In this document: piece by piece, positions 2,281-30,022 of the stretch
How the letters are laid out: each line of letters begins with the position of its first letter
Numbering within the stretch: position 1 is the stretch's first letter
Assembly: GCA_958295735.1 (NCBI GenBank)
Contig: OY282369.1
Coordinates: forward strand, 324,161 to 356,160
Origin: an uncultured Candidatus Cenarchaeum sp.
Lineage (GTDB): Archaea; Thermoproteota; Nitrososphaeria; Nitrososphaerales; Nitrosopumilaceae
Length of the DNA: 32,000 nucleotides
Direction of reading: 5' to 3'
Position numbers and translations under genes: made by a program
Notes under the pieces: model-generated
The model's input: only the letters and a program-made list of their open reading frames with translations
Database searches by the model: none
What the model was told of the DNA's origin: nothing

Positions 2281-3876
2281 TCACGACGGACGCGGGTCTG
2301 CGCGGCGGAGGCGCGCGTTAGGCGGCCGCGGCCCGGGGGCGGGGCGGGATCCGCGGGGCCGCAGCGATGCGGCGATCCTCCGCACGGCGGCGTTCGCCTC
2401 GTCCCCGAGGGATCGGGGCGCGCCGCCGCCGGCCGCGCCGTCGAACAGCGAGGCCAAGTCGGAGACGTCCCCCTTCCCCAGCCGCGAGACCGGGAGCACG
2501 GGGAGATCCAGGAGATCGCCCGGCTCGAACTTGTGCAGGCCGTTCCCGTACTCCCGCCGGTAGTACACCTGCACGGCCGCGGACAGATCCGAGTTCAGGT
2601 AGCACAGCAGCGCCTTGATCGCGGCGGGATCGGGGGACTTGGGGTAGATGCCGTGGTACGACGCGAGGTTGAGGCACTTTGCCCTGTTGTGCACGAACCT
2701 CATGTAGTCCCTGCTGAACGCGGTGGCCAGTATCGGCGCCGGCTCCCTTTTTTCCACGGAATACCACGGGGCCCTGTGCGCGCACAGGTACCGCTCGTGC
2801 ACCCCCATGCCCTCCCCGCGCGCGATGTATTTTTGGGCGCTCTCCGACGGGCTGCCCGCGCAGCAGAACAGGTGCACCTTCTGCCCGGCGCGCCCCAGCT
2901 CCGCCATGTCGCGCCGGGTCACCGCGTACCCGCGCGCCTGGGAGGCCCTCGACACGACCGGCGCGAGGAAGCGGTCCTCTATCCCCCACTCCGCGCGCTC
3001 CCGCTCCGACACGGTGAAGAATTCGTTGGAGCCGGTGGCGATCCCCCTCTTCACGCCCGCCTCCTCGCGCAGCGGCACCAGCCCGTCCGCCAGTTCGGGG
3101 ATCCCCGCCCCGGGAAAATAGCGCTGCCACTTCGCGTCGGGATCCATGGAGCCCTGCCGCGTCCCGCGCGCCGCCGCGCGCCGCCCGAGCGCCGACGCGT
3201 CGGCGGCCCTGACGAACTTCACCCGGTGGCCCTTCCCCGGCCTCCTGTTCACCATGAGGGTTATCGTGGCGGTGGTGAGGACGCCGGCCCCGAACGCGGG
3301 CCTGCCGAAGTCGAACGTGACGAAGCTGTCTATGGTGAAGTTGCCCAGGAGGAAGCGCTTCAGGGCCTTCCCGTACCCGGTGTAGAGGAACTCCGACGGG
3401 GTTATGAACGCGATCCTCCCCCCCGCCCTCACCGATCTCCCGGCCCTGACCATGAACAGGGCGTAGATGTTTGTGAGCGCGCTGAACCTCACCCCCGCCT
3501 CCTCCGATGCCCGGCGGATCAGGCCGCGGTCGAAGCGGTGGAAGTTGAGGTAGGGCGGGTTGCACACCAGGAAGTCGACCTTTTCGGGATCGTCGTAGCC
3601 CGACAGGTAGTCCTCGTTGCGCAGCTCGAACCTCCCCGCCGCCCCGCCGGCCGTCATGTCCAGGTGGCAGGCGTTAACCATGGTCGGATCCGAGTCTATG
3701 CCGGTCACGCGGTCGGCCCCGAGCGAGAGCGATTTTTTCATGAATATCCCCAGCCCGCACGCGGGATCCAGCACGGTCCTGGCGCCCCCCGCCAGCCCGA
3801 ACCTCACCATGAACTCCGCCACCCCCGGCGGCGTGAAGAACTGCCCCCGCCGCCTGCGGCGGGCCGGATCGGTCAT
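2281..3876 (-). CDS. N6-adenine DNA methyltransferase (gamma-class, Eco57I/TaqI-like) with a C-terminal target-recognition region
   Basis: Motifs GQFFTPPGVAEFMV (X), VLDPACGLGIFM (I) and LVCNPPYLNF (IV, NPPY), plus GIATGSNEFF. The ORF is open to 4242, but the extra 122 codons are Arg/Pro/Gly-rich translated GC spacer. The ATG at 3876 (MTDPARRRRRGQFFTPP) is the conservative start and remains uncertain. Confidence 0.8.
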   Translation of the reverse strand: MTDPARRRRRGQFFTPPGVAEFMVRFGLAGGARTVLDPACGLGIFMKKSLSLGADRVTGIDSDPTMVNACHLDMTAGGAAGRFELRNEDYLSGYDDPEKVDFLVCNPPYLNFHRFDRGLIRRASEEAGVRFSALTNIYALFMVRAGRSVRAGGRIAFITPSEFLYTGYGKALKRFLLGNFTIDSFVTFDFGRPAFGAGVLTTATITLMVNRRPGKGHRVKFVRAADASALGRRAAARGTRQGSMDPDAKWQRYFPGAGIPELADGLVPLREEAGVKRGIATGSNEFFTVSERERAEWGIEDRFLAPVVSRASQARGYAVTRRDMAELGRAGQKVHLFCCAGSPSESAQKYIARGEGMGVHERYLCAHRAPWYSVEKREPAPILATAFSRDYMRFVHNRAKCLNLASYHGIYPKSPDPAAIKALLCYLNSDLSAAVQVYYRREYGNGLHKFEPGDLLDLPVLPVSRLGKGDVSDLASLFDGAAGGGAPRSLGDEANAAVRRIAASLRPRGSRPAPGPRPPNARLRRADPRPS

Positions 3877-4292
3877 CTCGTAGAGGGACGTCAGGTCGCT
3901 GTCCGGGAACGCGCCGCCCGGCGCGGCCGCCTGCTCCACGGGCAGCCGTATCCCGAGCAGCCTGGCGCGGGAGCCCACCTCCGACCGGAACCCTTCCACC
4001 GACACGCGCCCCGCGGAGTCCGCCCGCGGCGGGATCGGATCGCTCGCCACGGCCCGTCCCCCGCGGCGAGTCTTTTTAACGTGGCCGCCCGGCGCGGGGG
4101 GGGGCGCCCCGCGGCATCCGCCTCCCCGCGATCCGCGCGCGCGGGCCCGCGCGCGCGAGGCCGGCAGCCCCCGCCCCGCGGGCGCGAACCCGGATCGGCG
4201 GGGGCGCTTTCGCGCCCGCGGCCGGCGGGCGCGCGGCCCCACGCGCCCGCGCGCTTGAAATACACAAATATGCGGGCCCGGTCCCCGCGCCG

Positions 4293-7733: not shown

Positions 7734-8052
7734 GGATTGGGGTCAAACCAATGTTATTTAAATCCACCTTAGGCGCCTGCCCGGTTTTCGGCATCGCGCG
7801 AAAAAACGCGCGCGCGATGATGATGTGCTCCCCCGCAGGACGCGCCGCGCGGGCGGGCGCGGGACGGCCGGGAGGACGGCGGGGGCGGGACGAAGCAACG
7901 CGGGCGGGCTCGTGTCCGAGCCCCTCGACATGGAGTCGTGCGGGAGGATCCTCCGCACGCTGCTCGGGATGGATCCCGGCGAGGACCTCCCGCCGTCCCT
8001 GACCCACTCGCTGGAGTTGAAAAGGAAAAAGGGCGGCGCGGCCCGCGGGGAC

Positions 8053-8432
8053 GGCGGCGCCCCGAAGAAGCGGGAGGGCGGGCAGGGACCGCCTGCCGGC
8101 CGGGGCGCGGGACGGGACAAAGGCGGCGCCCCGAAGAAGCGGGAGGGCGGGCAGGGACCGCCTGCCGGCCGGGGCGCGGGACGGGACAAAGGCGGCGCCC
8201 CGAAGAAGCGGGAGGGCGGGCAGGGACCGCCTGCCGGCCGGGGCGCGGGACGGGACAAAGGCGGCGCCCCGAAGAAGCGGGAGGGCGGGCAGGGACCGCC
8301 TGCCGGCCGGGGCGCGGGACGGGACAAAGGCGGCGCCCCGAAGAAGCGGGAGGGCGGGCAGGGACCGCCTGCCGGCCGGGGCGCGGGACGGGACAAAGGC
8401 GGCGCCCCGAAGAAGCGGGAGGGCGGGCAGGG
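8053..8432. repeat. perfect 69-bp tandem repeat, ~5.5 copies
   Basis: Unit 'ggcggcgccccgaagaagcgggagggcgggcagggaccgcctgccggccggggcgcgggacgggacaaa' starts at 8053, 8122, 8191, 8260, 8329 and 8398, with copies identical on inspection. Confidence 0.95.
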
Positions 8433-8598
8433 CAGGGAAACGCCGCGGAGGCGCGGCCCGGGGCGCGCCTGACGCCCGGGGGCGCGGCGGGCCGGAACGG
8501 CGGAGGACGGGAACGCGCGGGGCCGCGGCGCGTGGCGAGCGCCGCCCGGCCCGCGCGCCGGGGAGCCCTGGCCAGGGGGCCGCGGCGCGTGGTTGAGG

Positions 8599-8672
8599 TG
8601 GACTGAGGGGGATTTGAACCCCCGATTCCCCGCGTGCAAGGCGGGTGTACTACCAGGCTATACTATCAGCCC
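8599..8672 (-). tRNA. tRNA-Ala (anticodon UGC)
   Basis: Reverse complement GGGCUGAUAGUAUAGCCUGGUAGUACACCCGCCUUGCACGCGGGGAAUCGGGGGUUCAAAUCCCCCUCAGUCCA folds as a cloverleaf. It has the G3:U70 Ala identity pair, anticodon loop CUUGCAC, and T-loop UUCAAAU. A TATA-like 'gaattaaaatc' lies 24-32 nt upstream. No CCA is encoded. Confidence 0.9.
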
Positions 8673-8713
8673 ACGGCGCGGTTGCGCGCGTGCCGATTTT
8701 AATTCTTGCTAGC

Positions 8714-8761
8714 GGGCGGGCGGGCGGGCGGGCGGGCGGGCGGGCGGGCGGGCGGGCGGGC
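8714..8761. repeat. (GGGC)12 tetranucleotide microsatellite
   Basis: Twelve uninterrupted GGGC units lie between the tRNA-Ala TATA and the TATA of the 8850 gene. The paralogous copy at ~10456 has only 2 units. Confidence 0.95.
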
Positions 8762-8849
8762 GCGCCGTCCCGAAACCGCCGCGCGCCGCCGCGGGGTCCC
8801 CGGCCCCGCCCGGCAAGGGTTTTATGGGCGCCGCCCGCGGGGGGTGCTC

Positions 8850-9260
8850 ATGTCCCCTTGCGGCGCCCCCGTATGGCTGACCAAGATGGAGCGGCTGGCC
8901 GGCGACTACTACGACGAACCCGGGCGTTCCTACGGGGACGCGGCGTTCAACGCCACCCTCGCCTCCGGCGATCTCTGGCGCGGGCTGTTCGGCGAACTCG
9001 TGGAGCACGCGGAGGGGGCGCGGCCGGAAGCGGAACCGGGCGAAGTGCTCGCCATAATACAGCATGCGTATCCCGAAATATTCCGCCAGATAGTCGATTT
9101 CGCCGGCCACGTAAGCGACCGCGAATGGAACGAGGCGAAGCGGGCCGTCGAACTGGCCGTCGCCGCCGTCGACAAGGCGGGGGGCCCGGACTGCGTGATG
9201 CGGCGCCTGAGGGACGGCGCGAATTCCAGCGAGGGGCGGAAGCTGGAGGCCGAGGCATGA
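8850..9260 (+). CDS. hypothetical protein (136 aa), first gene of the cassette
   Basis: MSPCGAPVWLTKMERLAGDYYDEPGRSYGDAAFNATLASGDLWRGLFGELVEHAEG... A 'ttttat' box at 8820-8825 lies 25 nt upstream of the ATG at 8850. The stop TGA overlaps the next ATG (ATGA at 9257-9260). Confidence 0.6.
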   Translation: MSPCGAPVWLTKMERLAGDYYDEPGRSYGDAAFNATLASGDLWRGLFGELVEHAEGARPEAEPGEVLAIIQHAYPEIFRQIVDFAGHVSDREWNEAKRAVELAVAAVDKAGGPDCVMRRLRDGANSSEGRKLEAEA

Positions 9261-9427
9261 CTGCCGCTCTCGATCACCTCGACTGCACTACCTGCTACCA
9301 TTCCTTGCTGGCCCACTGGCCGGCAGGCAAGTGCAAGGCGACGAACGGCGTGCGAGGCTGCCGCTGCGCGCGCTTCGTGGGGACCGACGGCAAGAACTCC
9401 GACGACTGGCCGGGGGAGAAGGCATGA
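9257..9427 (+). CDS. small Cys/His-rich protein, tandem unit 1 of 5 (56 aa)
   Basis: MTAALDHLDCTTCYHSLLAHWPAGKCKATNGVRGCRCARFVGTDGKNSDDWPGEKA. There is an ATGA start/stop overlap at both ends. Confidence 0.6.
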   Translation: MTAALDHLDCTTCYHSLLAHWPAGKCKATNGVRGCRCARFVGTDGKNSDDWPGEKA

Positions 9428-9591
9428 CCGCCGCCGATCACCTCGACTGCACTACCTGCTACCATTCCTTGCTGGCCCACTGGCCGACCGGCAGTTGCAA
9501 AGTGTCGGACGGCATGGAAGACTGCCACTGCGAGCGCTTCGTGGGGACCGACGGCAAGAACTCCGACGACTGGCCGGGGGAGAAGGCATGA
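9424..9591 (+). CDS. small Cys/His-rich protein, tandem unit 2 of 5 (55 aa)
   Basis: MTAADHLDCTTCYHSLLAHWPTGSCKVSDGMEDCHCERFVGTDGKNSDDWPGEKA. ATGA overlaps at both ends. The unit period is 164 nt. Confidence 0.6.
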   Translation: MTAADHLDCTTCYHSLLAHWPTGSCKVSDGMEDCHCERFVGTDGKNSDDWPGEKA

Positions 9592-9755
9592 CCGCCGCCG
9601 ATCACCTCGACTGCACTACCTGCTACCATTCCTTGCTGGCCCACTGGCCGACCGGCAACTGCAAAGCGACGAACGGCGTGCAAGCCTGCGGCTGCGAGCG
9701 CTTCGTGGGGACCGACGGCAAGAACTCCGACGACTGGCCGGGGGAGAAGGCATGA
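9588..9755 (+). CDS. small Cys/His-rich protein, tandem unit 3 of 5 (55 aa)
   Basis: MTAADHLDCTTCYHSLLAHWPTGNCKATNGVQACGCERFVGTDGKNSDDWPGEKA. ATGA overlaps at both ends. Confidence 0.6.
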   Translation: MTAADHLDCTTCYHSLLAHWPTGNCKATNGVQACGCERFVGTDGKNSDDWPGEKA

Positions 9756-9919
9756 CCGCCGCCGATCACCTCGACTGCACTACCTGCTACCATTCCTTGC
9801 TGGCCCACTGGCCGACCGGCAACTGCAAAGCGACGAACGGCGTGCAAGCCTGCGGCTGCGAGCGCTTCGTGGGGACCGACGGCAAGAACTCCGACGACTG
9901 GCCGGGGGAGAAGGCATGA
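9752..9919 (+). CDS. small Cys/His-rich protein, tandem unit 4 of 5 (55 aa; nucleotide-identical to unit 3)
   Basis: Read directly from the sequence; the ORF is too short to appear in the supplied ORF track. Its DNA is identical to 9588-9755. Confidence 0.55.
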   Translation: MTAADHLDCTTCYHSLLAHWPTGNCKATNGVQACGCERFVGTDGKNSDDWPGEKA

Positions 9920-10107
9920 CCTACGGCGATCCCACGGCCTGCGCCACCTGCTACCATTCCATGCTGGCCCACTGGCCGACCGGCAGTTGCAAAGTGTCGG
10001 ACGGCATGGAAGACTGCCACTGCGAGCGCTACATACGGGACGACGGCGGGAACTCCGACGACTGGCCGGAAGCGAAGGCACGATCTACGACGACGGCCGG
10101 GACATAG
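9916..10107 (+). CDS. small Cys/His-rich protein, tandem unit 5 of 5 (63 aa, diverged ends, read-through tail)
   Basis: MTYGDPTACATCYHSMLAHWPTGSCKVSDGMEDCHCERYIRDDGGNSDDWPEAKARSTTTAGT. The core is identical to unit 2. The usual ATGA junction is ACGA here, so the ORF runs 8 extra codons to a TAG. Confidence 0.55.
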   Translation: MTYGDPTACATCYHSMLAHWPTGSCKVSDGMEDCHCERYIRDDGGNSDDWPEAKARSTTTAGT

Positions 10108-10262
10108 TCGACAATCCGGAGGCCGCCCCCGAATCGTACGGCGAGGACGGCGAGGACGAATCCGACACGATCGAGCACGGCGAGCACCCCGACTATGACG
10201 AGTTCCAAAAATGCCACGAGGAGATCGAGCAGCGCCAGGGATTCTACCACGACGACGCGGAG
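10080..10262 (+). pseudogene. acidic ORF remnant lacking a start codon (sixth position of the chain)
   Basis: Begins with ACG exactly where ATG occurs in units 1-5: (T)IYDDGRDIVDNPEAAPESYGEDGEDESDTIEHGEHPDYDEFQKCHEEIEQRQGFYHDDAERG. The frame then runs without a stop into direct-repeat copy B and the tRNA. Confidence 0.35.
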
Positions 10263-10546
10263 CGGGGCCGCGGCGCGTGGCGGGCGCCGCCCGGCCCGCG
10301 CGCCGGGGAGCCCCGGCCCGGGGGCCGCGGCGCGTGGCTGAGGTGGACTGGGGGGATTCGAACCCCCGATTCCACGCGTGCAAGGCGGGCGCACTACCGG
10401 GCCATACTGTCAGCCCACGGCGCGGTTGCGCGCGTGCCGATTTTAGTTCTTGCTAGCGGGCGGGCGCGCCGTCCCGAAACCGCCGCGCGGCGCCGCGGGG
10501 TCCCCGGCCCCGCCCGGCAAGGGTTTTATGGGCGCCGCCCGCGGGG
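10263..10546. repeat. direct repeat copy B (GC-rich segment + tRNA-Ala-like + bidirectional promoter)
   Basis: Paralog of 8518-8843. It has the same internal 'ggggccgcggcgcgtgg' doublet, the same tRNA upstream region ('gattttagttcttgctagc') and the same 'caagggttttatgggcgccgcccgcgggg'. Confidence 0.9.
10344..10416 (-). tRNA. tRNA-Ala(UGC)-like second copy, degenerate (possible pseudogene)
   Basis: 73 nt. Relative to copy 1 it has U8->C, a C:U mismatch in the anticodon stem (GCGUG versus GCGGG), a weaker D stem, and a 1-nt deletion at the T-stem/acceptor junction that leaves the 3' acceptor strand one base short. Confidence 0.55.
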
Positions 10547-10551
10547 AGCCC

Positions 10552-11103
10552 GTGGCCGTTACGGAATCCAGGAGGGTGCTCGTGGCGGGCGACGGCGCGC
10601 CGGACTTTGATCTGGAGGGGATCGACGGCGCCAGGCACTCGCTTTCGTCGTACTCTGGGTACGACGCCCTTCTCGTGGTGTTCATGTGCAACCACTGCCC
10701 CTTCGTGAAGGCGAAGGTGGAGGCCATGAAGGAGATCCACGGCAGGTTCAAGGACAGGGTGGCCGTGGTCGGGATAAACAGCAACGACGCGGCCAGGTAC
10801 CCGGACGACAGTTTCGAGAGCATGAAGAGCGTGGCGGCGGAGAAGGGAATCTCCTTCGACTACTTGGTGGACGGGACGCAGGACGTGGCCAGGAGGTACG
10901 GGGCATCCTGCACGCCGGACCCGTTCCTCTTCGACGGGGACAGGAAGCTCGTGTTCCACGGCAGGATCGACGATGCCGCGAATCCCGACGACGCGGCCAC
11001 GGAGAAGACGATGGTCAACAACATCGCGGCGCTTTTGGACGGCAGGGGGATCGAGAAGGACTTCGATCCGTCCGTCGGCTGCTCCATAAAGTGGAAGGAG
11101 TAG
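10552..11103 (+). CDS. thioredoxin-fold redoxin (AhpC/TSA-TlpA-like thiol-disulfide oxidoreductase)
   Basis: GAPDFDLEGIDGARHSLSSYSGYDALLVVFMCNHCPFVKAKV...VVGINSNDAARYPDDSFESMK...ASCTPDPFLFDGDRKLVFHGRIDD. GTG at 10552 lies 23 nt after the 'ttttat' box (10524-10529), mirroring the copy A geometry. The ATG at 10528 lies inside that box, and the track ORF start at 10450 is spacer. Confidence 0.85.
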   Translation: MAVTESRRVLVAGDGAPDFDLEGIDGARHSLSSYSGYDALLVVFMCNHCPFVKAKVEAMKEIHGRFKDRVAVVGINSNDAARYPDDSFESMKSVAAEKGISFDYLVDGTQDVARRYGASCTPDPFLFDGDRKLVFHGRIDDAANPDDAATEKTMVNNIAALLDGRGIEKDFDPSVGCSIKWKE

Positions 11104-11193
11104 GCCCGCCGGCCGCGGGCGGGGGAAGCGGGCGGCGGCCCGGCGCGTCCGCAAAACTAGACTTAAATCCAACCGCCCGGATGTCCCCGTTGC

Positions 11194-11290
11194 GGGCCGG
11201 TAGCTCAGCTTGGCTGGAGCGTTCGACTGATAGTCTCGGTCAGGATCAGAGATCGAAAGGTCGTGAGTTCGAATCTCACTCGGCCCACCA
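11194..11290 (+). tRNA. tRNA-Ile (anticodon GAU) with a 19-nt canonical intron and encoded CCA
   Basis: GGGCCGG UA GCUC..GAGC G UUCGA CUGAUA [gtctcggtcaggatcagag, 11233-11251] A UCGAA AGGUC GUGAG UUCGAAU CUCAC UCGGCCC A CCA. A TATA-like 'acttaaatcc' lies ~25-30 nt upstream. Confidence 0.85.
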
Positions 11291-11492
11291 GAATCCCTCC
11301 CGCGCGGCGGGCCGGGCGCGCGCGAAAGGGGGCATCGGCGGCGGGCGGGGACCGGCGGGCGGCGGCTGCCGGGCATGCCGGGAAAAACGCCGCGGGCGGG
11401 GGGGGCGCCGCGCCGGGATGCCGCCCGGGGCGGGCCCGCTTCCGGCGTCCCGGCCCCCGCGATCCTTCGGGCCCTTCCGCGGCCCGCCGCCG

Positions 11493-12389
11493 TCACCTCG
11501 CCGCCCCCTCGTACGCCGTCTCGAACCACTGCAGCACCGTGCCCAGATCCCCGGCGGCCAGGTCCGAGCGGGCGGGGGGCGCCCGCCCCGACGGCCCGCA
11601 CAGGACGAGGCGCACGTTCCGCCCCGCCCCCGCCCTCGCCTCGTTGACGTGCCCCGCGAACGCCCTCAGGGCCTTCTCCGTGTCCCCGAACACGGCGACC
11701 ATCATCAGCCCGCGCCGCGGCTTCCATATGCGGCCGAACAGCCGCACCAGGTCCAGGTCCAGCAGCACGCTGTCCGACTCGGACATGTCGCCGAGCAGGG
11801 CCACGCGCCAGCGCGAGCTCTTCAGGGCGGCCGCCGCCGACTCGCACAGCAGCGCGCTGGCCGGATCGGCGGCCATCAGCACGGCGTTCTTGCGGGGATC
11901 CGGATCCGGGGGGGCGGGGACGGCCGCGCGGATCGAGCCCGACATGATGCTCCTGGCCAGCGCGAGCTCCGAGCCGCCTATCCTGCCGTCGTCGTACGCC
12001 CGCCGGGCGGAGCGGTCGGCGGGGACCACCACGTCCGCCATGAGCCGCGGGACGCTGGCCCCCGAGCAGATGCAGCTGCGCACGAGCGCCTGCGCCTGGT
12101 CCTCCGAATGCGACATGACCAGCTCCTGGTACCGCTCCTGCGCGCGGTAGTAGTCGTCCGGGAACCGGTACGCCTCCGAGCCCTGGTCGACGTGCCACAC
12201 GGTGGCGCCGCCCGCGCCCCTCTTCCTGACCAGCCCCTCCGCCGCGAACACCTCCAGGTACTTGGACGCGGTGATCCTGCTCATGCCCAGCCTCGCCGAG
12301 ATCTCCACCCCCGAGAGCCCCGTCCTGGACTCGGAGAGCGCTTCCACCAGGCGCCGCCGAACGTCGTCCCTGCCGTACTCCCGGGCCAT
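11493..12389 (-). CDS. winged-helix transcriptional regulator with a C-terminal B12-binding-like domain (His ligand apparently absent)
   Basis: N-terminal wHTH: LSGVEISARLGMSRITASKYLEVFAAEGLVRKRGAGGATVWHV. The middle region resembles a B12-binding_2 helical bundle (VVVPADRSARRAYDDGRIGGSELALARSIM). The C-terminus is Rossmann-like (NAVLMAADPASALLCESAAAALKSSRWRVALLGD). The domain assignment is my pattern match and is unverified. Confidence 0.7.
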   Translation of the reverse strand: MAREYGRDDVRRRLVEALSESRTGLSGVEISARLGMSRITASKYLEVFAAEGLVRKRGAGGATVWHVDQGSEAYRFPDDYYRAQERYQELVMSHSEDQAQALVRSCICSGASVPRLMADVVVPADRSARRAYDDGRIGGSELALARSIMSGSIRAAVPAPPDPDPRKNAVLMAADPASALLCESAAAALKSSRWRVALLGDMSESDSVLLDLDLVRLFGRIWKPRRGLMMVAVFGDTEKALRAFAGHVNEARAGAGRNVRLVLCGPSGRAPPARSDLAAGDLGTVLQWFETAYEGAAR

Positions 12390-12781
12390 GCAGGCGGCGC
12401 GCTTCCGATCCGTATAAGCCTAGTTTCGGGGGCGGGGGCGGGGAGCGGGCGCCCCGTTCCCCCTCGAGGCCAGCGAGGACGGCCGCGGGTTCCTCTCGGC
12501 GGGGGCGGGGAGCGGGGAGCGGGCGCCCCGTTCCCCCCCTCCCAAGGAATGCCGGGATGCCGGATGCGGGCGCAGCCGGCAGGGGCGCACGCGGCCTAGC
12601 GCCCGGACCCCCCGCAGGCGGCAGGCAGCCGGGCGCCCAGACTCGCAGAATTCGTCCGCTATCTTTAAAGCGGCGCCCCCCCCCCCGCAGGCGGCAGGCA
12701 GCCGGGCGCCCAAGCCCCCCTCCGGGGCGCAAAAAATAACAGTTATATAGTTACCAGAATATACGGTAAAGCACGAGTAAA

Positions 12782-13165
12782 ATGCCGAAACCAGGTTTCA
12801 AGTCGATAACCGTGGCCGAGCAGGTCTACGACAAGTTCCACGAGATCTATTCGGAGAACAGGATCGCCCTCGCAATGAAGGGCGTCAACAGTTTCGCCGG
12901 ATACGTCACGTACAAGATGGAAGAGATGATGGAGAAGGACAGGGTATTCGCCAAGTACGCCCCCAGGATGGAGCGCGTATCGATGGACGATGACAGGGTC
13001 ATCCTGAAGGACAACGCACAGGACAGGATAATCGAGGTCAGCATAGAGGAAGGCGAGCCATACTGCCAGTTCTGCGAAAAGTGGGACTGTCCGCACATCG
13101 GGTTCGTCTGGTCCATCCCCGACGTATACGAGGCCCTGGACGCTCGCGGGGTCAAAAAGCACTAG
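12782..13165 (+). CDS. hypothetical protein (127 aa); possible RHH-like N-terminus and a C-terminal CxxC..CPH metal site
   Basis: MPKPGFKSITVAEQVYDKFHEIYSENRIALAMKG...EPYCQFCEKWDCPHIGF. Lower GC than its surroundings. A TATA-like 'agttatatag' lies ~25 nt upstream of the ATG. Confidence 0.7.
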   Translation: MPKPGFKSITVAEQVYDKFHEIYSENRIALAMKGVNSFAGYVTYKMEEMMEKDRVFAKYAPRMERVSMDDDRVILKDNAQDRIIEVSIEEGEPYCQFCEKWDCPHIGFVWSIPDVYEALDARGVKKH

Positions 13166-13228
13166 CTCGGCATGCACGGTACGGGCGGCGCCCAGCGCCG
13201 CCCCGCCACCTTTTTGAAATTGTTCTAG

Positions 13229-13348
13229 TGGAGGAGACGGGATTCGAACCCGCGAACCCCTGACGGGACAGGATCGCTCATCGGCAGATCTTAAGTCCTG
13301 CATGTCCAAAAGCGTCAGCTTACTTTGGCCGGGCTTGATTACTCCTCC
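13229..13348 (-). tRNA. tRNA-Leu (anticodon UAA) with two introns (D-arm non-canonical 19 nt; canonical 37/38 15 nt)
   Basis: 120-nt gene. Acceptor GGAGGAG/CUCCUCC, T-arm GCGGG UUCGAAU CCCGU, long variable arm CCCGUCAGGGGUUC. The anticodon arm CAGGA CUUAAG[A] ... UCCUG forms only after removing 13275-13289. The D stem AUC/GAU forms only after removing 13304-13322. The mature length of 86 nt fits a class II tRNA. Confidence 0.65.
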
Positions 13349-13414
13349 GGCGCGGCGGGGGCGCGCTGCCGGATTTAACGGTTTAGGGGCGGGCCCGGGG
13401 CCGGGGGCCGGGGG

Positions 13415-13526
13415 CGCCCGCCGATCCGGGCCCGCGGCGGGAGCGGCCCGGCGGCCGGAACGGCCGGGGGCGCCCGCCGATCCGGGCCCGCGGCGGGAGC
13501 GGCCCGGCGGCCGGAACGGGCGGGGG
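13415..13526. repeat. 56-bp tandem duplication in a GC-rich spacer
   Basis: 'cgcccgccgatccgggcccgcggcgggagcggcccggcggccggaacgg' occurs at 13415 and 13471. Confidence 0.85.
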
Positions 13527-13651
13527 CCCCGGGGCGGGAGCGCCCCCGCCGATCCTGCCGGCGGCAACCGGAACGGGCGATCGCCGCGGCCCGGCGGGAG
13601 GAGGGGGGCGGCAACCAAGAATTATAAGGATTTTTTTCCGAGGGGGCGCGT

Positions 13652-13725
13652 GCTTCGATAGCTCAGCCTGGTAGAGCGTTACCTTGGTAAGGTAAAGGTC
13701 ACGGGTTCGGATCCCGTTCGAAGCT
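13652..13725 (+). tRNA. tRNA-Thr (anticodon GGU)
   Basis: GCUUCGA UA GCUC AGCCUGGUA GAGC G UUACC UUGGUAA GGUAA AGGUC ACGGG UUCGGAU CCCGU UCGAAGC U. A TATA-like 'aattataagga' lies ~25-30 nt upstream. Confidence 0.9.
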
Positions 13726-14576
13726 CAGAAATTCCTGATCAGCAGCTCGTGGTGGCCCGACCTGCCGGACGAGTCGGAGTTGATCAGCCTGTTGGCGGTG
13801 AGCTTGGCCACGTTCCACCCGCCGAAGAGCCTGCGCACCGGCTCGGTGTCCGAGTTGGAGAGGACCACGCGGCACCCCGCCCCGTCCAGGCGGGCGTACT
13901 CGGAGGCCAGCCTCTCCAGGTCGGCGGCCACAAAGTCCCCCCCGGTGTACTGCGTAAAGCTGGCGGTCGCGCTCACCGGCTGGTAGGGCGGATCGAGGTA
14001 GACAAAGTCGCCCTCCCCCGCGCCGGCCAGCGCATCCGCAAAGTCGCCGGACGAGATCCGCACGTTCCCGGATCCCAGCAGCCGGCTGGCGGCCCGCAGG
14101 CCCTCCTCGTTCACTATGTTCGGGTTGGCGTACCTGCCCATCGGCACGTTGAACTTTCCGCGGCGGTTCACGCGGTACAGCCCGTTGAAGCACGTCCTGT
14201 TCAGGAACACCAAGCGGGAGCACACAGACACGGGATCCGACGGCTCCTCGCCCCGCACGCGGTAGTAGTACCCGGAACGGTCCTCCGCGTAGCCCGCGGC
14301 GTGGCCCCTGAGCGACTCTATGAGCTCGTCCACCCTGTCGCGCACCACCGTATACGCGAGGATCAGATCGGCGTTGAGATCCGAGACGAGGCAACGACGG
14401 CCGGGATCGAGCAGGAGCGTGTAGAACAGGACTGCCCCGCCGCCCAAAAAGGGCTCGAAGTACCTGCCGAACTCCCTCGGAAAGTACTCGCTCATGGCGG
14501 GAATGAGCCGCCTCTTTCCCCCGGCCCACTTTACGAACGGCCGCGGGGCCCTGTCTGCCAGATGCTGCTTGGGCAA
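13725..14576 (-). CDS. Dam-type (D12 class) N6-adenine DNA methyltransferase
   Basis: PFVKWAGGKRRLIPAM...YFEPFLGGGAVLF (SAM-binding FxGxG) and FVYLDPPYQPVS (DPPY catalytic motif). The stop codon (13725-13727) touches the discriminator base of tRNA-Thr. Confidence 0.9.
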   Translation of the reverse strand: MPKQHLADRAPRPFVKWAGGKRRLIPAMSEYFPREFGRYFEPFLGGGAVLFYTLLLDPGRRCLVSDLNADLILAYTVVRDRVDELIESLRGHAAGYAEDRSGYYYRVRGEEPSDPVSVCSRLVFLNRTCFNGLYRVNRRGKFNVPMGRYANPNIVNEEGLRAASRLLGSGNVRISSGDFADALAGAGEGDFVYLDPPYQPVSATASFTQYTGGDFVAADLERLASEYARLDGAGCRVVLSNSDTEPVRRLFGGWNVAKLTANRLINSDSSGRSGHHELLIRNF

Positions 14577-14818
14577 CGCGCGCTCTCCCGGGCGGGCCGA
14601 TTTAAGTCGTTGAGGGGCGGAGCGGGGCGTCCCCGCAACCGGCGGGCGCGCGGGGCGGCGGGCGGTCCGCTTCCCCGCCGCCCGGCGGCCCGGCGGGGCG
14701 CTTCCCGCTCCCGCGATGCCCCCGGGCCGCGGCCGGCGGACTGCACGATCGCGGAACGGCGGGGGCCGCGGGGATGCGGCGGAACGGCGGGGGCCGCGGG
14801 GCGGGATGCCCGGGGGCT

Positions 14819-14843: not shown

Positions 14844-15494
14844 TCAGTCCCACTTGGACCATGCGGCCATCCATCTGTACGTCCAGGTGTTCAGTTTGAC
14901 ACCTAACGCTGCCATGGTGACCGACAAGACAGCACCAGCGCCAGCACCTAACGCCACCGGACTGTTATAGAACTTCCCGACTTGGGGTTCTATTGGAGTC
15001 ATGTACGGGGGCAACGTGGGACGCGGGTACTTGAATGCCGTCTCCAGCGGGTCTGCCACTGTGATAAGATTTACCATGTTGAACAACGGCAACGACATGC
15101 CGACCAGCACGCCGCCGAACAGTATCAGCGAGTGCTTGTTCCGCTTTGTCGCCCAGTACGCCAAATCCAACAGCATCGCCGATGGAAGCCACACCGGAGT
15201 GACGATGAAGTCGTACGGGTAACCAAGTGCGAACCAAGCGCCCTTTGCCACCCAAGTGTACACCGTCATGATTAGCGCGTAGTACGTCGCCGTACCTGGA
15301 ACGCCCGTGAACGTGAGGTAGTACGTTGCGCCTACGACCAGCATCAGGGTTTGCGATATGGAGAACACCGTGTACGACGTCCATGCCCAATCAGTGTAGA
15401 AGATGTAGTCTCCTGCGTTAATTGTCAACAGGGTCGAGTTCACTGCAACCACTATTATGAACAAGTAGTGCGTGCACCGCCTAAGCCAGACCAT
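14844..15494 (-). CDS. amoA: ammonia monooxygenase subunit A (archaeal)
   Basis: 216 aa: MVWLRRCTHYLFIIVVAVNSTLLTINAGDYIFYTDWAWTSYTVFSISQTLMLVVGATYYLTFTGVPGTATYYALIMTVYTWVAKGAWFALGYPYDFIVTPVWLPSAMLLD... This is the canonical thaumarchaeal AmoA sequence and length. Confidence 0.97.
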   Translation of the reverse strand: MVWLRRCTHYLFIIVVAVNSTLLTINAGDYIFYTDWAWTSYTVFSISQTLMLVVGATYYLTFTGVPGTATYYALIMTVYTWVAKGAWFALGYPYDFIVTPVWLPSAMLLDLAYWATKRNKHSLILFGGVLVGMSLPLFNMVNLITVADPLETAFKYPRPTLPPYMTPIEPQVGKFYNSPVALGAGAGAVLSVTMAALGVKLNTWTYRWMAAWSKWD

Positions 15495-15515
15495 TGCTGG
15501 ATTGAAAAGGAGGTC

Positions 15516-15532
15516 AGTATATAAAATTTTAG
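15516..15532 (-). promoter_or_regulatory. TATA box of amoA
   Basis: The minus strand reads 'taaaattttatatact' 23-38 nt upstream of the ATG at 15494. It is an AT island in a GC-rich context. Confidence 0.55.
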
Positions 15533-15670
15533 AAGCGCTCTAGGCCGGCGCCTTTTGGCCGGATCCCGCCCCGCAGGGGCCCGCCGCGCGCCTTTTCCCC
15601 GCCGGCGGGGGCGGACGGCGGTTCCTGCGCCGGCGGGGGCGGGGCTGGAGGCACCCGCCGGCGGGACGGG

Positions 15671-15810
15671 GCCGGCTCGGGCGGGCTGCCGCGTCCCGGG
15701 CCCTCTCCGGCCGGCTCGGGCGGGCTGCCGCGTCCCTGGGAGCCCGCTCCGGGCGGGCTGCCGCGTCCCTGGGAGCCCGCTCCGGCCGGCTCGGGCGGGT
15801 TGCCGCGCGC
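15671..15810. repeat. imperfect ~34-38-bp tandem repeats in the amoA-amoX spacer
   Basis: 'ggccggctcgggcgggctgccgcgtcc' and 'gggcgggctgccgcgtccctgggagcccgctcc' recur 3-4 times. Confidence 0.8.
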
Positions 15811-15876
15811 GAACGGCCCGGCCGCAGCTGCCGCTCCCCCGCACGGGCACCGGTGCTAATGCCCACAGGCACGGAT

Positions 15877-15888
15877 AGAGAAAAATGC
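15877..15888 (-). terminator. T-tract after the amoX stop
   Basis: The minus strand reads TGAgtctccgaccctcgcATTTTTCTCT. Confidence 0.4.
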
Positions 15889-15901
15889 GAGGGTCGGAGA
15901 C

Positions 15902-16264
15902 TCAGTTGCCCACGAACAGCGAGATCAGCACCGTGCCGATCGCGGTACCGCCGAGCGTTACGCCCACGAGACCATTGCTCTTCTTTGTAGAGCCTTCCTC
16001 CGACACCTTCACGCTGAAGAGGTAGCCGATGGCTTCCACGATAGTCAGCACGATGAAGGCATAGTGGCCGCTCGGAGTGGGGTACGCCCAAGGATAGTAG
16101 TAGTATCCAGCAGCCGTACCGCCAAAGGTGGCAAGCCAAGCCGCGATGTAGGAAATCGTGATAAGACCCGTCATGTTTTCGACGCGCCGGCCGATCATTC
16201 TCTCGACGTCTGCAGAACCCGTGCCTCCGGCACCGCCCGATCCAAATCCCTTCGGAAGAGTCAT
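15902..16264 (-). CDS. amoX: AmoX (small three-TM protein conserved between amoA and amoC in archaeal amo clusters)
   Basis: 120 aa from the ATG at 16264: MTLPKGFGSGG...GLITISYIAAWLATFGGTAAGYYYYPWAYPTPSGHYAFIVLTIVEAIGYLFSV...GLVGVTLGGTAIGTVLISLFVGN. The position matches amoX. The 223-aa track ORF extends into GC spacer. A TATA box lies 20-33 nt upstream of 16264. Confidence 0.85.
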   Translation of the reverse strand: MTLPKGFGSGGAGGTGSADVERMIGRRVENMTGLITISYIAAWLATFGGTAAGYYYYPWAYPTPSGHYAFIVLTIVEAIGYLFSVKVSEEGSTKKSNGLVGVTLGGTAIGTVLISLFVGN

Positions 16265-16283
16265 TTGGACTGACGCAATACTG

Positions 16284-16297
16284 AATATATTAAAATC
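16284..16297 (-). promoter_or_regulatory. TATA box of amoX
   Basis: The minus strand reads 'gattttaatatattc' directly upstream of the ATG at 16264. Confidence 0.5.
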
Positions 16298-16747
16298 TTT
16301 CCTTGCTGAATCCGCGTTATATACTGCGCCGGGAGGCGCTCCCGCCCGCGTCTGCGAGCGGGCGCGGCAGCGGCCGGCAGGTCCCGCCCGCGGCCGCCTC
16401 CCGGAGCGGCCGGCTCCCTGGCCAGGCGCGCGGCGGAACGCGGCGGCGGGCCCCACGGGTCCAAGGCGCGCGGGCGAAGGGGCCGCGCGGCCGCTTCGTT
16501 TCCGCCAAGCGGCCAGCCGCCAGGCGCGGTTCCAGGCGCGCCCGGCCGTCGCCGGCAGGCGGCGGCATCCCATCTGCCGCGGCGCGGCCTGCGCCCCGCG
16601 GTCCCGCCCCCTCCCGCCGCGCTGCCTGCCGGCGGAACCGGCGATCGCGCATCGCGCCTAGGGCTTGGACGACCTGGCAGCTTTGGCAGCGGCGGCCCGC
16701 GCGCCGGCGGGCGGCAGCATGCAGGGCGGCATCAGGAGGCCGAAGGC

Positions 16748-16934
16748 GGGAGGCCGGCGGGGAGGGGGCGGGAGGCCGGCGGGGAGGGGGCGGGAGGCCG
16801 GCGGGGAGGGGCACGTCCGCCCCGGGGCCAGGCCGGGCAGGGCAGGCCGGCGGGGAGGTGGCGGGAGGCCGGCGGGGAGGGGCACGTCCGCCCCGGGGCC
16901 AGGCCGGGCAGGGCAGGCCGGCGGGGAGGTGGCG
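16748..16934. repeat. nested tandem repeats (22-bp x3, then 71-bp x2) in the amoX-amoC spacer
   Basis: 'gggaggccggcggggaggggg' occurs at 16748, 16770 and 16792. The 71-bp unit 'gggaggccggcggggaggggcacgtccgccccggggccaggccgggcagggcaggccggcggggaggtggc' occurs at 16792 and 16863. Confidence 0.85.
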
Positions 16935-16991
16935 CTGGCGTCCGGACGCCCGGGGTCGGCGCCTGCCGGGTCAGGGGCGCGAAGTGAAAAG

Positions 16992-17101
16992 GGCGCTGGC
17001 GCTGCCGGGGTCCGCAGGCAATCGATCCCCGCTTGCGGACGGGCCGCACCTCCACGTTGTTGAAGGCGCTGGCGCTGCCGGGGTCCGCAGGCAATCGATC
17101 C
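16992..17101. repeat. 37-bp segment duplicated at 73-bp spacing
   Basis: 'ggcgctggcgctgccggggtccgcaggcaatcgatcc' occurs at 16992 and 17065. Confidence 0.85.
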
Positions 17102-17323
17102 GGCGGCGCTGGCACGTGCCGAGTTTCGCGCGGTTCCGGCGGCCGCGAACGAACCCGGGAGCCGCCGGCGGGGCGGACGGCGGGCGCCGGGCATCCAGTA
17201 GCGCCAGGAGCGCGGTTCCGGCGGCGGCCGGTGCCGCTCCCCCGATGCGCCGTTCGGCAAACCAGAGGCCGGAGGAAAGAACAGCGGCGGCCCCTGACGG
17301 GGGGAGCGGCGGGCGGGCGGACC

Positions 17324-17427
17324 CGCGCGGCGCGCGGGCCGGAATGGCGCGGCGCTTTTCGCGAGCGGAACGGCGCCCTGTTCCCGCGGGCACCTCGCGC
17401 GGCGCGCGGGCCGGAATGGCGCGGCGC
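17324..17427. repeat. 32-bp segment duplicated at 72-bp spacing
   Basis: 'cgcgcggcgcgcgggccggaatggcgcggcgct' occurs at 17324 and 17396. Confidence 0.85.
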
Positions 17428-17636
17428 TGCCGCGGACGCTCCGCGGGACCGTCCCGCATTACGCAACGGCGCCCGCCGCGGCGCGCGGCCCGGCAGATGC
17501 TTTTCCCCCGCGTCCCCGCCGGCGGCCGCGGGCGGAAGGGCGCGCGGCCCCGCGCGGGGCCGGCCCGGAAAGGGCGGCGGCGGCCCGGCTGCGGGAGGCC
17601 GGATGCGGCGCGGATCCGCGCGCCGCGGTCACGGGG

Positions 17637-17737
17637 CCGGCAGGGGGCCGCCGGCCGGGGAGGCGGATCCTCTCCGCGGCGGCCCGCCGCCCGTCCCGCG
17701 CCGGCAGGGGGCCGCCGGCCGGGGAGGCGGATCCTCC
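17637..17737. repeat. 36-bp segment duplicated at 64-bp spacing
   Basis: 'ccggcagggggccgccggccggggaggcggatcctc' occurs at 17637 and 17701. Confidence 0.85.
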
Positions 17738-17748
17738 CCCACCGTCAG

Positions 17749-17760
17749 CAAAGAAAAAAG
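17749..17760 (-). terminator. T-tract after the amoC stop
   Basis: The minus strand reads TAAccgcaggtcgcgctttcgcacggcCTTTTTTCTTTG about 25 nt downstream of the stop at 17785-17787. Confidence 0.45.
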
Positions 17761-17784
17761 GCCGTGCGAAAGCGCGACCTGCGG

Positions 17785-18348
17785 TTATGGGATTGAGCGG
17801 CTGTACAGCTTGCCCTCTAGGGCCATCTTGTACATTTCCGCGACGTACGGGTTTTCGCCGGGCGTCTCCGCCCCGAGCTCGACCAGCCGCGCGTACACCC
17901 TGACCACGTAGGCCAAGGCGCCCATGAAGGCCACCACCACGCCCATGTTGAACATCCAGTGGTTGGGAACGGCGAAGATCTCCTCGACGAACCAAAAGTG
18001 CCACATCTCGTTGACGCCGATCGTGAACATGGTGGCAAGGTAACCGAGTATGGTCATCTTGAGCCCCGTGTTCATCGAGTTGTTCGGGCCTCTGAGTATG
18101 GGCACCCTTCTGTCGTAGATTGCGACCGCACCCCATCCCAGCGGCAGAGCCACGAAGTGGGAGTACAGCCACCAGTGCGCCGGTGTGAACGCGCTGTCCC
18201 TTATGGACGTCTGGTGCAGCGAGCCGTCGACGAAGTTGTCAACCTCGACCGACGCCGCGGTGGAACCCATTGCGATTACGATGAGCCAGATCTTTTTGAG
18301 CCTCTGGATCTCGACCTCTTTTGGGATCAATGCAGGCATTTGTGCCAT
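17785..18348 (-). CDS. amoC: ammonia monooxygenase subunit C (archaeal)
   Basis: 187 aa: MAQMPALIPKEVEIQRLKKIWLIVIAMGSTAASVEVDNFVDGSLHQTSIRDSAFTPAHWWLYSHFVALPLGWG...FTIGVNEMWHFWFVEEIFAVPNHWMFNMG. This is the canonical thaumarchaeal AmoC. Confidence 0.95.
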   Translation of the reverse strand: MAQMPALIPKEVEIQRLKKIWLIVIAMGSTAASVEVDNFVDGSLHQTSIRDSAFTPAHWWLYSHFVALPLGWGAVAIYDRRVPILRGPNNSMNTGLKMTILGYLATMFTIGVNEMWHFWFVEEIFAVPNHWMFNMGVVVAFMGALAYVVRVYARLVELGAETPGENPYVAEMYKMALEGKLYSRSIP

Positions 18349-18370
18349 TGGCTACCAGTCTGCCACGCGA

Positions 18371-18385
18371 CGTATAAGGCAATAG
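18371..18385 (-). promoter_or_regulatory. TATA-like box of amoC
   Basis: The minus strand reads 'tattgccttatacg' 24-36 nt upstream of the ATG at 18348. It lies in the AT-richer divergent amoC/amoB intergenic region. Confidence 0.4.
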
Positions 18386-18542
18386 GGCCGCGGCCCGCCC
18401 GCGAACGATCAAAAAACCACACCCGCAAAGGCGGGAGTGATGCTATTAATGCAGGAATGACACATATGAAGATAATATTTTAGGCCAGTTTTCGCCCCCT
18501 CCTCCATGCTAACCATCAATGATAAGCACTCACCCGCAAGGT

Positions 18543-18555
18543 AAAACATATAACG
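18543..18555 (+). promoter_or_regulatory. TATA box of amoB
   Basis: 'aaaacatataacg'. It is too close to the track ORF ATG at 18560, but 35-47 nt upstream of ATG 18590/18593. Confidence 0.5.
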
Positions 18556-18589
18556 TTCCATGTTGGGCGGCAAGAATCAAGGGATAGCA

Positions 18590-19159
18590 ATGATGGACAA
18601 GAAGATACTAGTGATAGGACTCGGCGCCGTACTGGCCTTGGGCACGCTCGGCTTCAACTGGATCGAGGCCGTCCTGCCCACGGTGGAGGCGCACGGCGTC
18701 CAGGCGCAGCTGCAGAGCCGCTTCGTGAGGATAGAAGACGAGACGTTCAACAGGCAGTCCCTCCAGACGGGCGAGACCCTGTGCCTCTCCGGCCAGTTCG
18801 TCAGCTTGGTGGAAAGGGACATGAGGGCGTGGAACTCCATATTCTCGGAGTCGACGAACGCCGGCAACCGCTGGGAGATCCTCTCCAGGGACCCGCCCGG
18901 AAACGTCTTTGATCTTCCAGGCAACTCCGTAGTTCCGTACGAGATATGCGCCAAGGCGCTGGAGCCTGGCCTGTACCACGTCCACACCCAGCTCAATGTG
19001 GCGCAGGTCGGCCCGGGCCTCGGCCCAGGGCAGACGGTGGTCGTTGACGGGGAGTACATCGTGAAGGAGATACCTTACGTGAACATTGCGTACCAGTCGA
19101 TCATCATCGGCGTCGGTTACGTGATCACGTTCGCGACGAGGCCCTGGCAGGTCATCTGA
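18590..19159 (+). CDS. amoB: ammonia monooxygenase subunit B (archaeal)
   Basis: MMDKKILVIGLGAVLALGTLGFNWIEAVLPTVEAHGVQAQLQSRFVRIEDETFNRQSLQTGE...: a signal/TM segment, then HGVQAQLQSRF, typical of archaeal AmoB, and a C-terminal TM. The start at 18590 is preferred over 18560 because of the TATA position. Confidence 0.95.
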   Translation: MMDKKILVIGLGAVLALGTLGFNWIEAVLPTVEAHGVQAQLQSRFVRIEDETFNRQSLQTGETLCLSGQFVSLVERDMRAWNSIFSESTNAGNRWEILSRDPPGNVFDLPGNSVVPYEICAKALEPGLYHVHTQLNVAQVGPGLGPGQTVVVDGEYIVKEIPYVNIAYQSIIIGVGYVITFATRPWQVI

Positions 19160-22042: not shown

Positions 22043-22355
22043 AACCGGTTCGCCTGGCCGGGGGGGGCGCTATCCCGAAATCGGTTCGCCTGGCCGGGGG
22101 GGGCGCTATCCCGAAATCGTTTCGCCTGGCCGGGGGGGGCGCTATCCCGAAATCGTTTCGCCTGGCCGGGGGGGGCGCTATCCCGAAATCGTTTCGCCTG
22201 GCCGGGGGGGGGCGCTATCCCGAAATCGTTTCGCCTGGCCGGGGGGGGGCGCTATCCCGAAATCGTTTCGCCTGGCCGGGGGGGGGGGCGCTATCCCGAA
22301 ATCGTTTCGCCTGGCCGGGGGGGGGGGGCGCTATCCCGAAATCGTTTCGCCTGGA
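22043..22355. repeat. 36-40-bp tandem repeat (8 units plus a partial) with a stepwise lengthening poly-G tract
   Basis: The unit is 'gcgctatcccgaaatcgtttcgcctggcc' plus G(n). The G-runs I counted are 8, 8, 8, 8, 9, 9, 11 and 12. Unit starts are 22067, 22103, 22139, 22175, 22212, 22249, 22288 and 22328. Confidence 0.9.
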
Positions 22356-29988: not shown

Positions 29989-30022
29989 TCCCAAAAGTGG
30001 CGACCCTCCCTTCACCTGACAC
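29795..30022 (-). pseudogene. N-terminally truncated zinc metalloprotease (metzincin/matrixin-type HExxHxxGxxH)
   Basis: The 75-aa ORF contains NIKYVANHELGHFAGLGHA, then a (DS)4 linker and a Cys-containing tail. The ~100 aa that normally precede the zinc site are missing. In frame upstream there is a TGA (30050-30052), which is the transposase stop. Confidence 0.6.

Follow-up and report, generated by a model that had tools for sequence, protein, structure and literature searches.

The mobile elements integrated in thaumarchaeal genomes are bounded by attachment (att) sites with a median length of 17 bp, and among the elements that target transfer RNA (tRNA) genes, recombination involves the 3′ part of the tRNA in every case but one (Krupovic et al. 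2019, PMC6563490). Here, we describe a cassette of 1.4 kb that is enclosed by two direct repeats and lies between a tRNA-Ala gene and an AhpC/TSA-family redoxin gene, in a 32,000-nt stretch of contig OY282369.1 from an uncultured Candidatus Cenarchaeum sp. (the window, meaning the whole stretch that was analysed). Like the thaumarchaeal tRNA-integrated elements (PMC6563490), this locus combines virus-related DNA beside a tRNA gene with direct repeats and an empty site in relatives. Unlike those elements, the cassette has no integrase, the insert is only 1.4 kb long, and the repeats (285–327 nt) cover the whole tRNA gene and both of its flanks. In position and cargo the locus therefore resembles a cryptic integrated element at a tRNA, but it falls outside that class. 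It is better accounted for by an integrase-independent capture in which the target was duplicated, with tandem amplification afterwards; these processes are each known singly, and their combination in an ammonia-oxidizing archaeon would be new. We consider it likely that a virus-like fragment was captured here without an integrase, in a manner that duplicated a host segment carrying the tRNA and promoter and so provided one promoter each for the cassette and the redoxin gene.

The layout of the locus is repeat A (8517–8843, 327 nt), an insert of 1418 nt, and repeat B (10262–10546, 285 nt), where the two copies are approximately 95% identical. An earlier note on this DNA, made from the sequence alone, had placed these direct repeats at 8518–8843 and 10263–10546 with a left offset of 1745 nt. 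Copy A consists of a GC-rich block that extends 79 nt past the tRNA 3′ end, the tRNA-Ala gene and a 171-nt divergent promoter region. The offset between the copies is 1745 nt at the left edge, 1744 nt in the tRNA and 1704 nt at the right edge, and the drop to 1704 nt arises because copy A has 40 extra nucleotides of a GCGG microsatellite. This (GCGG)12.8 tract (8712–8762) is situated between the two divergent TATA boxes and is expanded in copy A only, which alters the promoter spacing by 40 nt in that copy; it also reads as approximately 12 GGGC units, and its plus strand is a textbook G-quadruplex-forming motif. Across the ∼285 aligned nucleotides, the copies differ by 14 substitutions and one 1-nt deletion, and 12 of the 14 substitutions feature A or T in copy A and G or C in copy B. 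These differences are clustered, with 13 in the first 185 nt and one in the last ∼100 aligned nucleotides.

The GC-rich block of each repeat had also been reported to contain an internal doublet. This was confirmed: the 17-mer GGGGCCGCGGCGCGTGG is found twice per copy (8519–8535 and 8576–8592; 10264–10280 and 10321–10337) at a spacing of 57 nt, giving four matches where 0.04 would be expected. One member of the doublet abuts the tRNA 3′ trailer and the other forms the exact left edge of the long repeat. As its length equals the thaumarchaeal median for att sites, the doublet may be what remains of an earlier integration or excision event. The 79-nt GC block past the tRNA 3′ end showed no RNA structure beyond what its composition predicts (z-scores of −0.5 and +0.25).

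A repeat-insert-repeat structure could also be produced by the assembler, if two strain variants at the tRNA-Ala locus had been collapsed together or joined as a chimera, and strain-level variants do occur in this sample, as two contigs that carry a second chromosomal locus described below (L086 and L087) are 99.65% identical. However, the same arrangement is present in contig L001 (100% identity over 15,242 nt) and contig L002 (one mismatch over 13,453 nt), which, like the source contig, are HiFi contigs assembled separately from sample ERZ19489113, and every contig that encodes the redoxin has identical neighbours at this locus. Agreement between three separately assembled HiFi contigs indicates that the arrangement is not a misassembly; a misassembly is what the earlier note had named as refuting its proposal. 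In addition, the repeats can be told apart by 15 differing positions and a 40-nt indel, while the whole unit spans 2 kb and fits inside a single HiFi read. An artefact is therefore extremely improbable.

The ancestral state of the locus was assessed by comparison with relatives. The window has a GC content of approximately 70% and its host is an ammonia-oxidizing archaeon, with amoA, amoC and amoB at 14844–19159 according to gene calls mapped onto the window. A search with the redoxin as a query found loci at 64–72% identity in Nitrosotenuis, Nitrosopelagicus, Nitrosopumilus and marine group I single-cell genomes. All eight Nitrosopumilaceae loci feature exactly one tRNA-Ala(UGC), which is encoded on the minus strand directly upstream of the redoxin gene, and homologues of the cassette are absent from each of these eight syntenic loci. 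Downstream, the relatives share the order redoxin, tRNA-Ile(GAU), helix-turn-helix (HTH) regulator, 127-aa protein, tRNA-Thr(GGU) and Dam methylase, which equals the order at 10552–14576 of the window, while synteny with the relatives does not extend to the left of the tRNA. A single tRNA and no cassette in eight relatives, together with a conserved right flank, therefore identify the cassette plus one repeat as an insertion. This matches the prediction in the earlier note of a single tRNA-Ala next to the redoxin gene as the ancestral state, and supports its suggestion that the 1.4 kb between the repeats was captured or expanded through a duplication of the tRNA-promoter module. One anchor of the conserved block is an intron-bearing tRNA-Ile(GAU) on the plus strand (11194–11290), and the relatives carry tRNA-Ile(GAU) at the syntenic position. 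ARAGORN called this gene as tRNA-Tyr(ata), which was rejected as the Rfam alignment places a 20-nt intron after the anticodon loop CUGAUA.

Each repeat had been described as carrying a complete tRNA-Ala gene, but this holds for copy A only. The copy A tRNA-Ala(UGC) (8597–8672, minus strand) is intact and folds as a canonical cloverleaf with G3:U70, U8 and A14, and its match to Rfam RF00005 (8599–8672) scores 64.7 bits, above the gathering threshold of 29. In contrast, the copy B tRNA-Ala(UGC) (10342–10417, minus strand) scores 25.5 bits, which is below this threshold. When both were aligned with the tRNA-Ala(UGC) of the eight Nitrosopumilaceae relatives, copy A retained every conserved position and copy B was derived at U8 (to C) and A14 (to G). 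Copy B also has a C28-U42 mismatch, which falls in the anticodon stem, and has lost nucleotide 66 of the acceptor stem, which leaves A7 unpaired. The minimum-free-energy fold is a cloverleaf for copy A and not for copy B. Based on its subthreshold score, derived positions and non-cloverleaf fold, copy B appears to be a tRNA pseudogene, and the AT-to-GC bias of its changes is what should be expected under relaxed constraint and strong genomic GC pressure. A non-functional tRNA-like copy adjoining an insert is reminiscent of the tRNA pseudogenes and fragments found at attachment sites, but copy B is full length and has decayed by point mutations and a 1-nt deletion, and is not a truncated att half. 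ARAGORN calls copies A and B alike as tRNA-Ala, so annotation that relies on it would accept the decayed copy as a normal tRNA and overcount the tRNA-Ala genes of this genome.

The insert contains a gene for a 136-aa protein, five small genes (55–63 aa) and a tail of approximately 180 nt. The first gene (8850–9260, plus strand) encodes an ORFan that is predicted to be helical. It is followed on the same strand by unit 1 (9257–9427, 56 aa, Cys/His-rich), unit 2 (9424–9591, 55 aa), unit 3 (9588–9755, 55 aa), unit 4 (9752–9919, 55 aa), which is nucleotide-identical to unit 3, and unit 5 (9916–10107, 63 aa), which is the most divergent. The small genes are coupled to the 136-aa gene and to one another by ATGA stop/start overlaps, beginning with the overlap between unit 1 and the gene upstream, and GGAG-like motifs lie ∼8–13 nt before each internal ATG. 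Tandem Repeats Finder reported the array as 5.0 copies of a 164-nt period with 91% matches, and all five open reading frames (ORFs) are intact. As the 164-nt period corresponds to a 168-nt gene minus a 4-nt overlap, the frame shifts with each gene, and the units are therefore separate genes and not domains of one protein. At the end of the array, a single ATGA to ACGA mutation has removed the TGA stop of unit 5, which extends this unit by eight codons, and also the start codon (ATG to ACG) of an acidic open frame of 60 codons (10083–10262, plus strand) that makes up the tail and runs into repeat B. The first 14 codons of this frame resemble the 3′ end of a mini-gene unit, and the frame is probably a relic or non-coding. 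A viral origin for the acidic tail was considered but is unproven, as pairwise comparisons with acidic viral proteins gave E-values of 0.004–0.012 but a search of a small database gave values of approximately 2.

Neither the 136-aa protein nor the small protein matched Pfam (even at E ≤ 5), PHROGs, PADLOC or PDB sequences, except for a weak match to phrog_1311 (E = 0.005). A HMMER search with the 136-aa family against 1.84 billion cluster representatives recovered only the protein itself, a scan of IMG/VR with the small-protein alignment returned no matches, and a word-indexed search of 5.8 billion proteins found relatives of both families in the same sample only. On the strength of these searches, both predicted protein families are ORFans known only from this sample. 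AlphaFold models had predicted local distance difference test (pLDDT) scores of 52 for the small protein and 45 for the 136-aa protein, below the level that is useful for a fold search. In the small protein (55-aa numbering), C9, H19, C25, C34 and C36 are invariant, and C12 and H14 are present in all but one degraded copy, which is described below; our best guess is that this is a putative zinc-binding protein with a variable loop. Base composition was not decisive as a foreign signature, as the insert has a GC content of 66% against 70% for the window and the third-position GC content (GC3) of the 136-aa gene is within the host range.

Relatives of the gene pair were identified in two other settings within the sample. 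The first is a set of virus-like contigs (L083–L085; two of ∼58 kb and one of 18.9 kb) that encode P0003, a protein 66–67% identical to the 136-aa protein. Window positions 8839–9416 align with all three of these contigs at 76% nucleotide identity. One homologue of the small gene, encoding 57 aa, follows P0003, and the pair sits inside a co-directional, ATGA-coupled string of genes. These contigs have a GC content of ∼67%, all of their genes are co-directional, and they encode a ribonucleotide reductase, a dUTPase, three PAPS-reductase paralogues (phrog_424) and five DNA methylases. On L083, PAPS-reductase-like genes lie within 8186–9956 and 13896–14711 and, together with the five methylases, are all inside 20 kb, which suggests an elaborate DNA-modification module. 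The best database match of the PAPS-reductase gene directly upstream of P0003 was a Nitrosopumilaceae spindle-shaped virus record (35% identity, 2e-32), but a relationship between the contig and the spindle-shaped virus NMP1 was rejected, as this gene alone is shared. A tblastn search with P0003 against deposited phage and virus genomes gave no matches. Based on these similarities, the putatively captured cassette DNA is related to a virus-like element of the same sample, and the comparison indicates that the inserted fragment comprised the 136-aa gene, one small Cys/His-rich gene and the ∼180-nt tail of such a mobile element.

The second setting is another chromosomal locus of the same 3.17-Mb genome (locus 2; L086 9895–10476, L087 9204–10584), where a single small gene of 57 aa accompanies a 137-aa gene; the pair follows an N6/N4 methylase, in a neighbourhood of DDE and rve transposases. 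The 136-aa protein is 75% identical, over the part that aligns, to the 137-aa product P0004, whose gene carries a frameshift in the strain variant L086 but is intact in L087. The 57-aa protein is the degraded copy mentioned above and has lost Cys12 and His14. A repeat-insert-repeat structure was also sought at locus 2, but only an unconvincing 64-nt repeat with 86% identity was found.

The existence of this second copy, together with the fact that the window, virus-like and locus-2 versions are about equally divergent from one another (synonymous divergence, dS, of 0.21–0.38), would also suit a different history, in which the gene pair is native to the host and was taken up by the virus-like element, and the cassette reached the tRNA locus through a segmental duplication or translocation within the host genome, perhaps from locus 2, with no viral DNA involved. 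The sequence upstream of the locus-2 copy also resembles the right end of the repeat (GGCGCCGaCCGCGGGG versus GGCGCCGcCCGCGGGG). We regard this history as unlikely, given that the pair is missing from the eight syntenic loci of relatives and from the 1.84 billion representative proteins, that it forms part of the co-directional, ATGA-coupled string on the virus-like contig, and that locus 2, with its neighbouring methylase and transposases, itself looks acquired.

Cargo related to a virus-like element is likewise compatible with a classical integrase-mediated provirus or element at tRNA-Ala that was mostly deleted, including its integrase, and left 1.4 kb between attL and attR. The cassette adjoins a tRNA gene, which is the preferred thaumarchaeal target (39 of 68 cases, PMC6563490), and restriction-modification genes occur on the non-syntenic side of the tRNA, to its left, as they would in a variable island. 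The repeats, however, are a poor match to att sites, whose median length is 17 bp and whose overlap with the tRNA is limited to its 3′ part (PMC6563490): at 285–327 nt, they include the entire tRNA, 79 nt past its 3′ end and 171 nt past its 5′ end, up to the start codon of the neighbouring gene. No ORF in the cassette matches an integrase family in Pfam, and the sole ORF with an rve domain is 20 kb away (30157–31014). Furthermore, no tRNA-like sequence was found in the ∼20 kb examined of the virus-like contigs. The statements in the earlier note that no integrase lies inside and that this is not a classical tRNA-targeting integrative element thus both hold: with no integrase and with repeats that far exceed att sites, the classical model fails two of its defining features, and a deleted provirus seems improbable.

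Across the window, tRNA 5′ ends and the start codons of genes are preceded at 22–25 nt by AT-rich hexamers, as seen for the tRNA-Ile, tRNA-Thr, DUF255, HTH and dam genes, and this spacing is consistent with archaeal TATA boxes and leaderless transcripts, with promoter activity proposed here from sequence geometry only. An AT-rich island, AATTAAAAT on the minus strand, is present 23 nt upstream of the tRNA 5′ end in each repeat and represents a predicted TATA-like box for the tRNA (8696–8704 in copy A). On the plus strand, a predicted TATA-like box (TTTTAT) in copy A (8820–8825) is 24 nt upstream of the ATG of the 136-aa gene at 8850, and its counterpart in copy B (10524–10529) is followed, at a distance of 22 nt, by an in-frame GTG (10552) that would start the redoxin gene. 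This agrees with the earlier claim that both repeats carry a plus-strand TATA box at a similar distance from a start codon. The 26-mer surrounding TTTTAT is present only at 8810 and 10514, with zero occurrences expected by chance. The copy of the redoxin promoter in repeat A now faces the cassette and would probably yield a leaderless transcript.

The redoxin gene (10552–11103, plus strand) was assigned by Pfam PF00578 (3e-19; 69.6 bits against a gathering cutoff of 26) and PF08534 (57.2 bits against 26.6). We favour GTG 10552 as its start, given the promoter geometry and the N-terminus that results, which is collinear with that of the Nitrosotenuis homologue. Public gene calls for this redoxin conflict: one begins at TTG 10450, passes through repeat B and gives 217 aa, and another begins at GTG 10582 and gives 173 aa.

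The insertion point lies between the divergent promoter of the tRNA-Ala and redoxin genes and the start codon of the redoxin gene. Without the duplication, an insertion here would have separated the redoxin gene from its promoter, whereas with it both the cassette and the redoxin gene keep one. The duplicated host segment of ∼285 bp spans the tRNA 3′ flank, the tRNA-Ala gene and the whole intergenic promoter, and ends 5–6 nt before the start codons. We infer that insertion and duplication were one event. Under this proposal, the cassette would be transcribed as a leaderless operon, using one copy of the host redoxin promoter while the other continues to serve the redoxin gene itself, the duplicate tRNA would have freed one copy to decay, giving rise to the copy B pseudogene with mainly AT-to-GC changes, and the small gene would have expanded head to tail to five copies.

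Two routes to such an event can be envisaged. In one, a template switch during replication or repair would have led into viral DNA, with a return 285 bp behind the break. Template-switching models of this type, microhomology-mediated break-induced replication (MMBIR) and fork stalling and template switching (FoSTeS), were reportedly set out by Hastings et al. in 2009 and are said to be described mainly in eukaryotes and bacteria. Consistent with these models, a foreign segment lies between direct target duplications, and one junction falls in a short run shared with donor-like sequences: the right junction (8843/8844) falls within a G-run that comes after the TATA box and before the start codon, and the viral and locus-2 homologues have the same run upstream of them, with the same geometry of 24 nt between TATA box and start. 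The left junction has no usable homologue for comparison. This case differs from those described for MMBIR and FoSTeS in its archaeal host and in that the donor sequence is not in hand, so junction microhomology cannot be checked here. In Campbell-type integration, a circle that carries host DNA recombines homologously with the chromosome, as with specialised-transducing genomes, and the second route would be an integration of this type by a circular hybrid of virus and host DNA in which the tRNA region was already included. This also accounts for long host repeats around an insert and would explain the near-identity of the right third of the repeats, but it needs a prior hybrid molecule, and no tRNA-Ala region is present in the 20 kb examined of the virus-like contigs. 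Both routes fit the present data, which do not separate them.

The small gene occurs five times in the window, and once on each of L083–L085 and once at locus 2, which by sequence comparison indicates that it was amplified from one to five copies, after or during capture. Among units 1–4, all amino acid changes are within codons 22–37, interleaved with the invariant residues G23, C25, G30, C34 and C36, and pairwise ratios of nonsynonymous to synonymous divergence (dN/dS) range from 0.4 to 2.5, resting on very few changes. Units 2 and 5 have the same central patch, which resembles a tract of gene conversion. A diversity-generating retroelement was set aside as the source of the variable patch, as judged from the substitution pattern, which is not adenine-specific. 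Amplification of this kind is reminiscent of the ‘genomic accordions’ that Elde et al. are said to have described in 2012 for tandem amplification of the poxvirus gene K3L: a gene that is single-copy elsewhere is here present in five head-to-tail copies, two of which are identical and the others of which carry amino acid changes. Unlike the K3L accordion, this array is in an archaeal chromosome, and neutral slippage in a repeat-prone genome explains its amplification equally well; the window contains 31 tandem arrays in 32 kb, several of which are 100% perfect.

A more elaborate possibility is that the cassette is a domesticated viral module, in which viral genes are driven by a host promoter and the small zinc-binding protein was expanded to a five-member variable-loop array directed against related viruses. 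Here, the host would have duplicated its own tRNA/promoter segment and thereby placed viral genes under a constitutive housekeeping promoter. We consider this doubtful; if true, the array might act in superinfection exclusion or as decoys, for example, and would be an archaeal chromosomal counterpart of a genomic accordion.

Several observations weigh against capture of a virus-like fragment, or against parts of that proposal. The virus-like contigs sampled are only 76% identical to the cassette, with a dS of ∼0.38, so microhomology between the true donor and the junctions is unprovable. No capsid, terminase or integrase genes were found in the ∼20 kb examined of the ∼58-kb contigs, and ‘virus’ should therefore be read throughout as ‘virus- or plasmid-like’. 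Gene flow may also have run from host to virus. The uneven spread of differences along the repeats is not what simple decay after duplication would predict, and fits homologous recombination, gene conversion or promoter constraint. Within the array, the dN/dS values come from a handful of changes, and the clustering of amino acid changes is partly due to the one patch common to units 2 and 5. Finally, the earlier note had proposed a search for reads or contigs that lack the cassette, but no cassette-free allele or excised circle was found, and two scans of Joint Genome Institute (JGI) metagenomes, one with a 26-mer from the repeat and one with a tRNA 44-mer, gave no matches.

If integrase-independent capture is correct, the locus is a record of how an ammonia-oxidizing archaeon acquired virus-like genes and connected them directly to a predicted host promoter, with a tRNA pseudogene, decayed mainly by AT-to-GC substitutions, as a by-product. 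It also ties a previously unsampled, high-GC (70%) lineage of ammonia oxidizers, represented by a 3.17-Mb contig, to a virus-like element of ∼58 kb found in the same sample, and provides a small Cys-rich ORFan family with copy-number expansion that is testable for metal binding and for antiviral or regulatory roles.

Additional features were observed elsewhere in the window. In the non-syntenic region to the left of the tRNA, Pfam families from precomputed gene calls identified a 589-aa Eco57I-type N6 methylase/restriction fusion (2281–4050), which is in keeping with a variable defence island next to tRNA-Ala. An ORF immediately to the left of repeat A (7930–8472) encodes a 180-aa protein without a family match and contains a perfect tandem repeat of 69 nt (8053–8432; 5.5 copies, 100% identity), which specifies a basic, Gly/Pro-rich unit of 23 aa, GGAPKKREGGQGPPAGRGAGRDK. 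A further array at 22049–22354 consists of 8.2 head-to-tail copies of a 36-nt unit with 98% identity and has no spacers, so it is not a CRISPR array. Towards the right end of the window, a 1-kb island of low GC content (∼29000–30020; 44% against 70%) carries a 217-aa minus-strand ORF with no convincing family match. This island adjoins the rve-family (integrase-core) transposase ORF at 30157–31014, a relative of which, 67% identical, is present at locus 2 (L086/L087), and the island looks like a recent horizontal acquisition.

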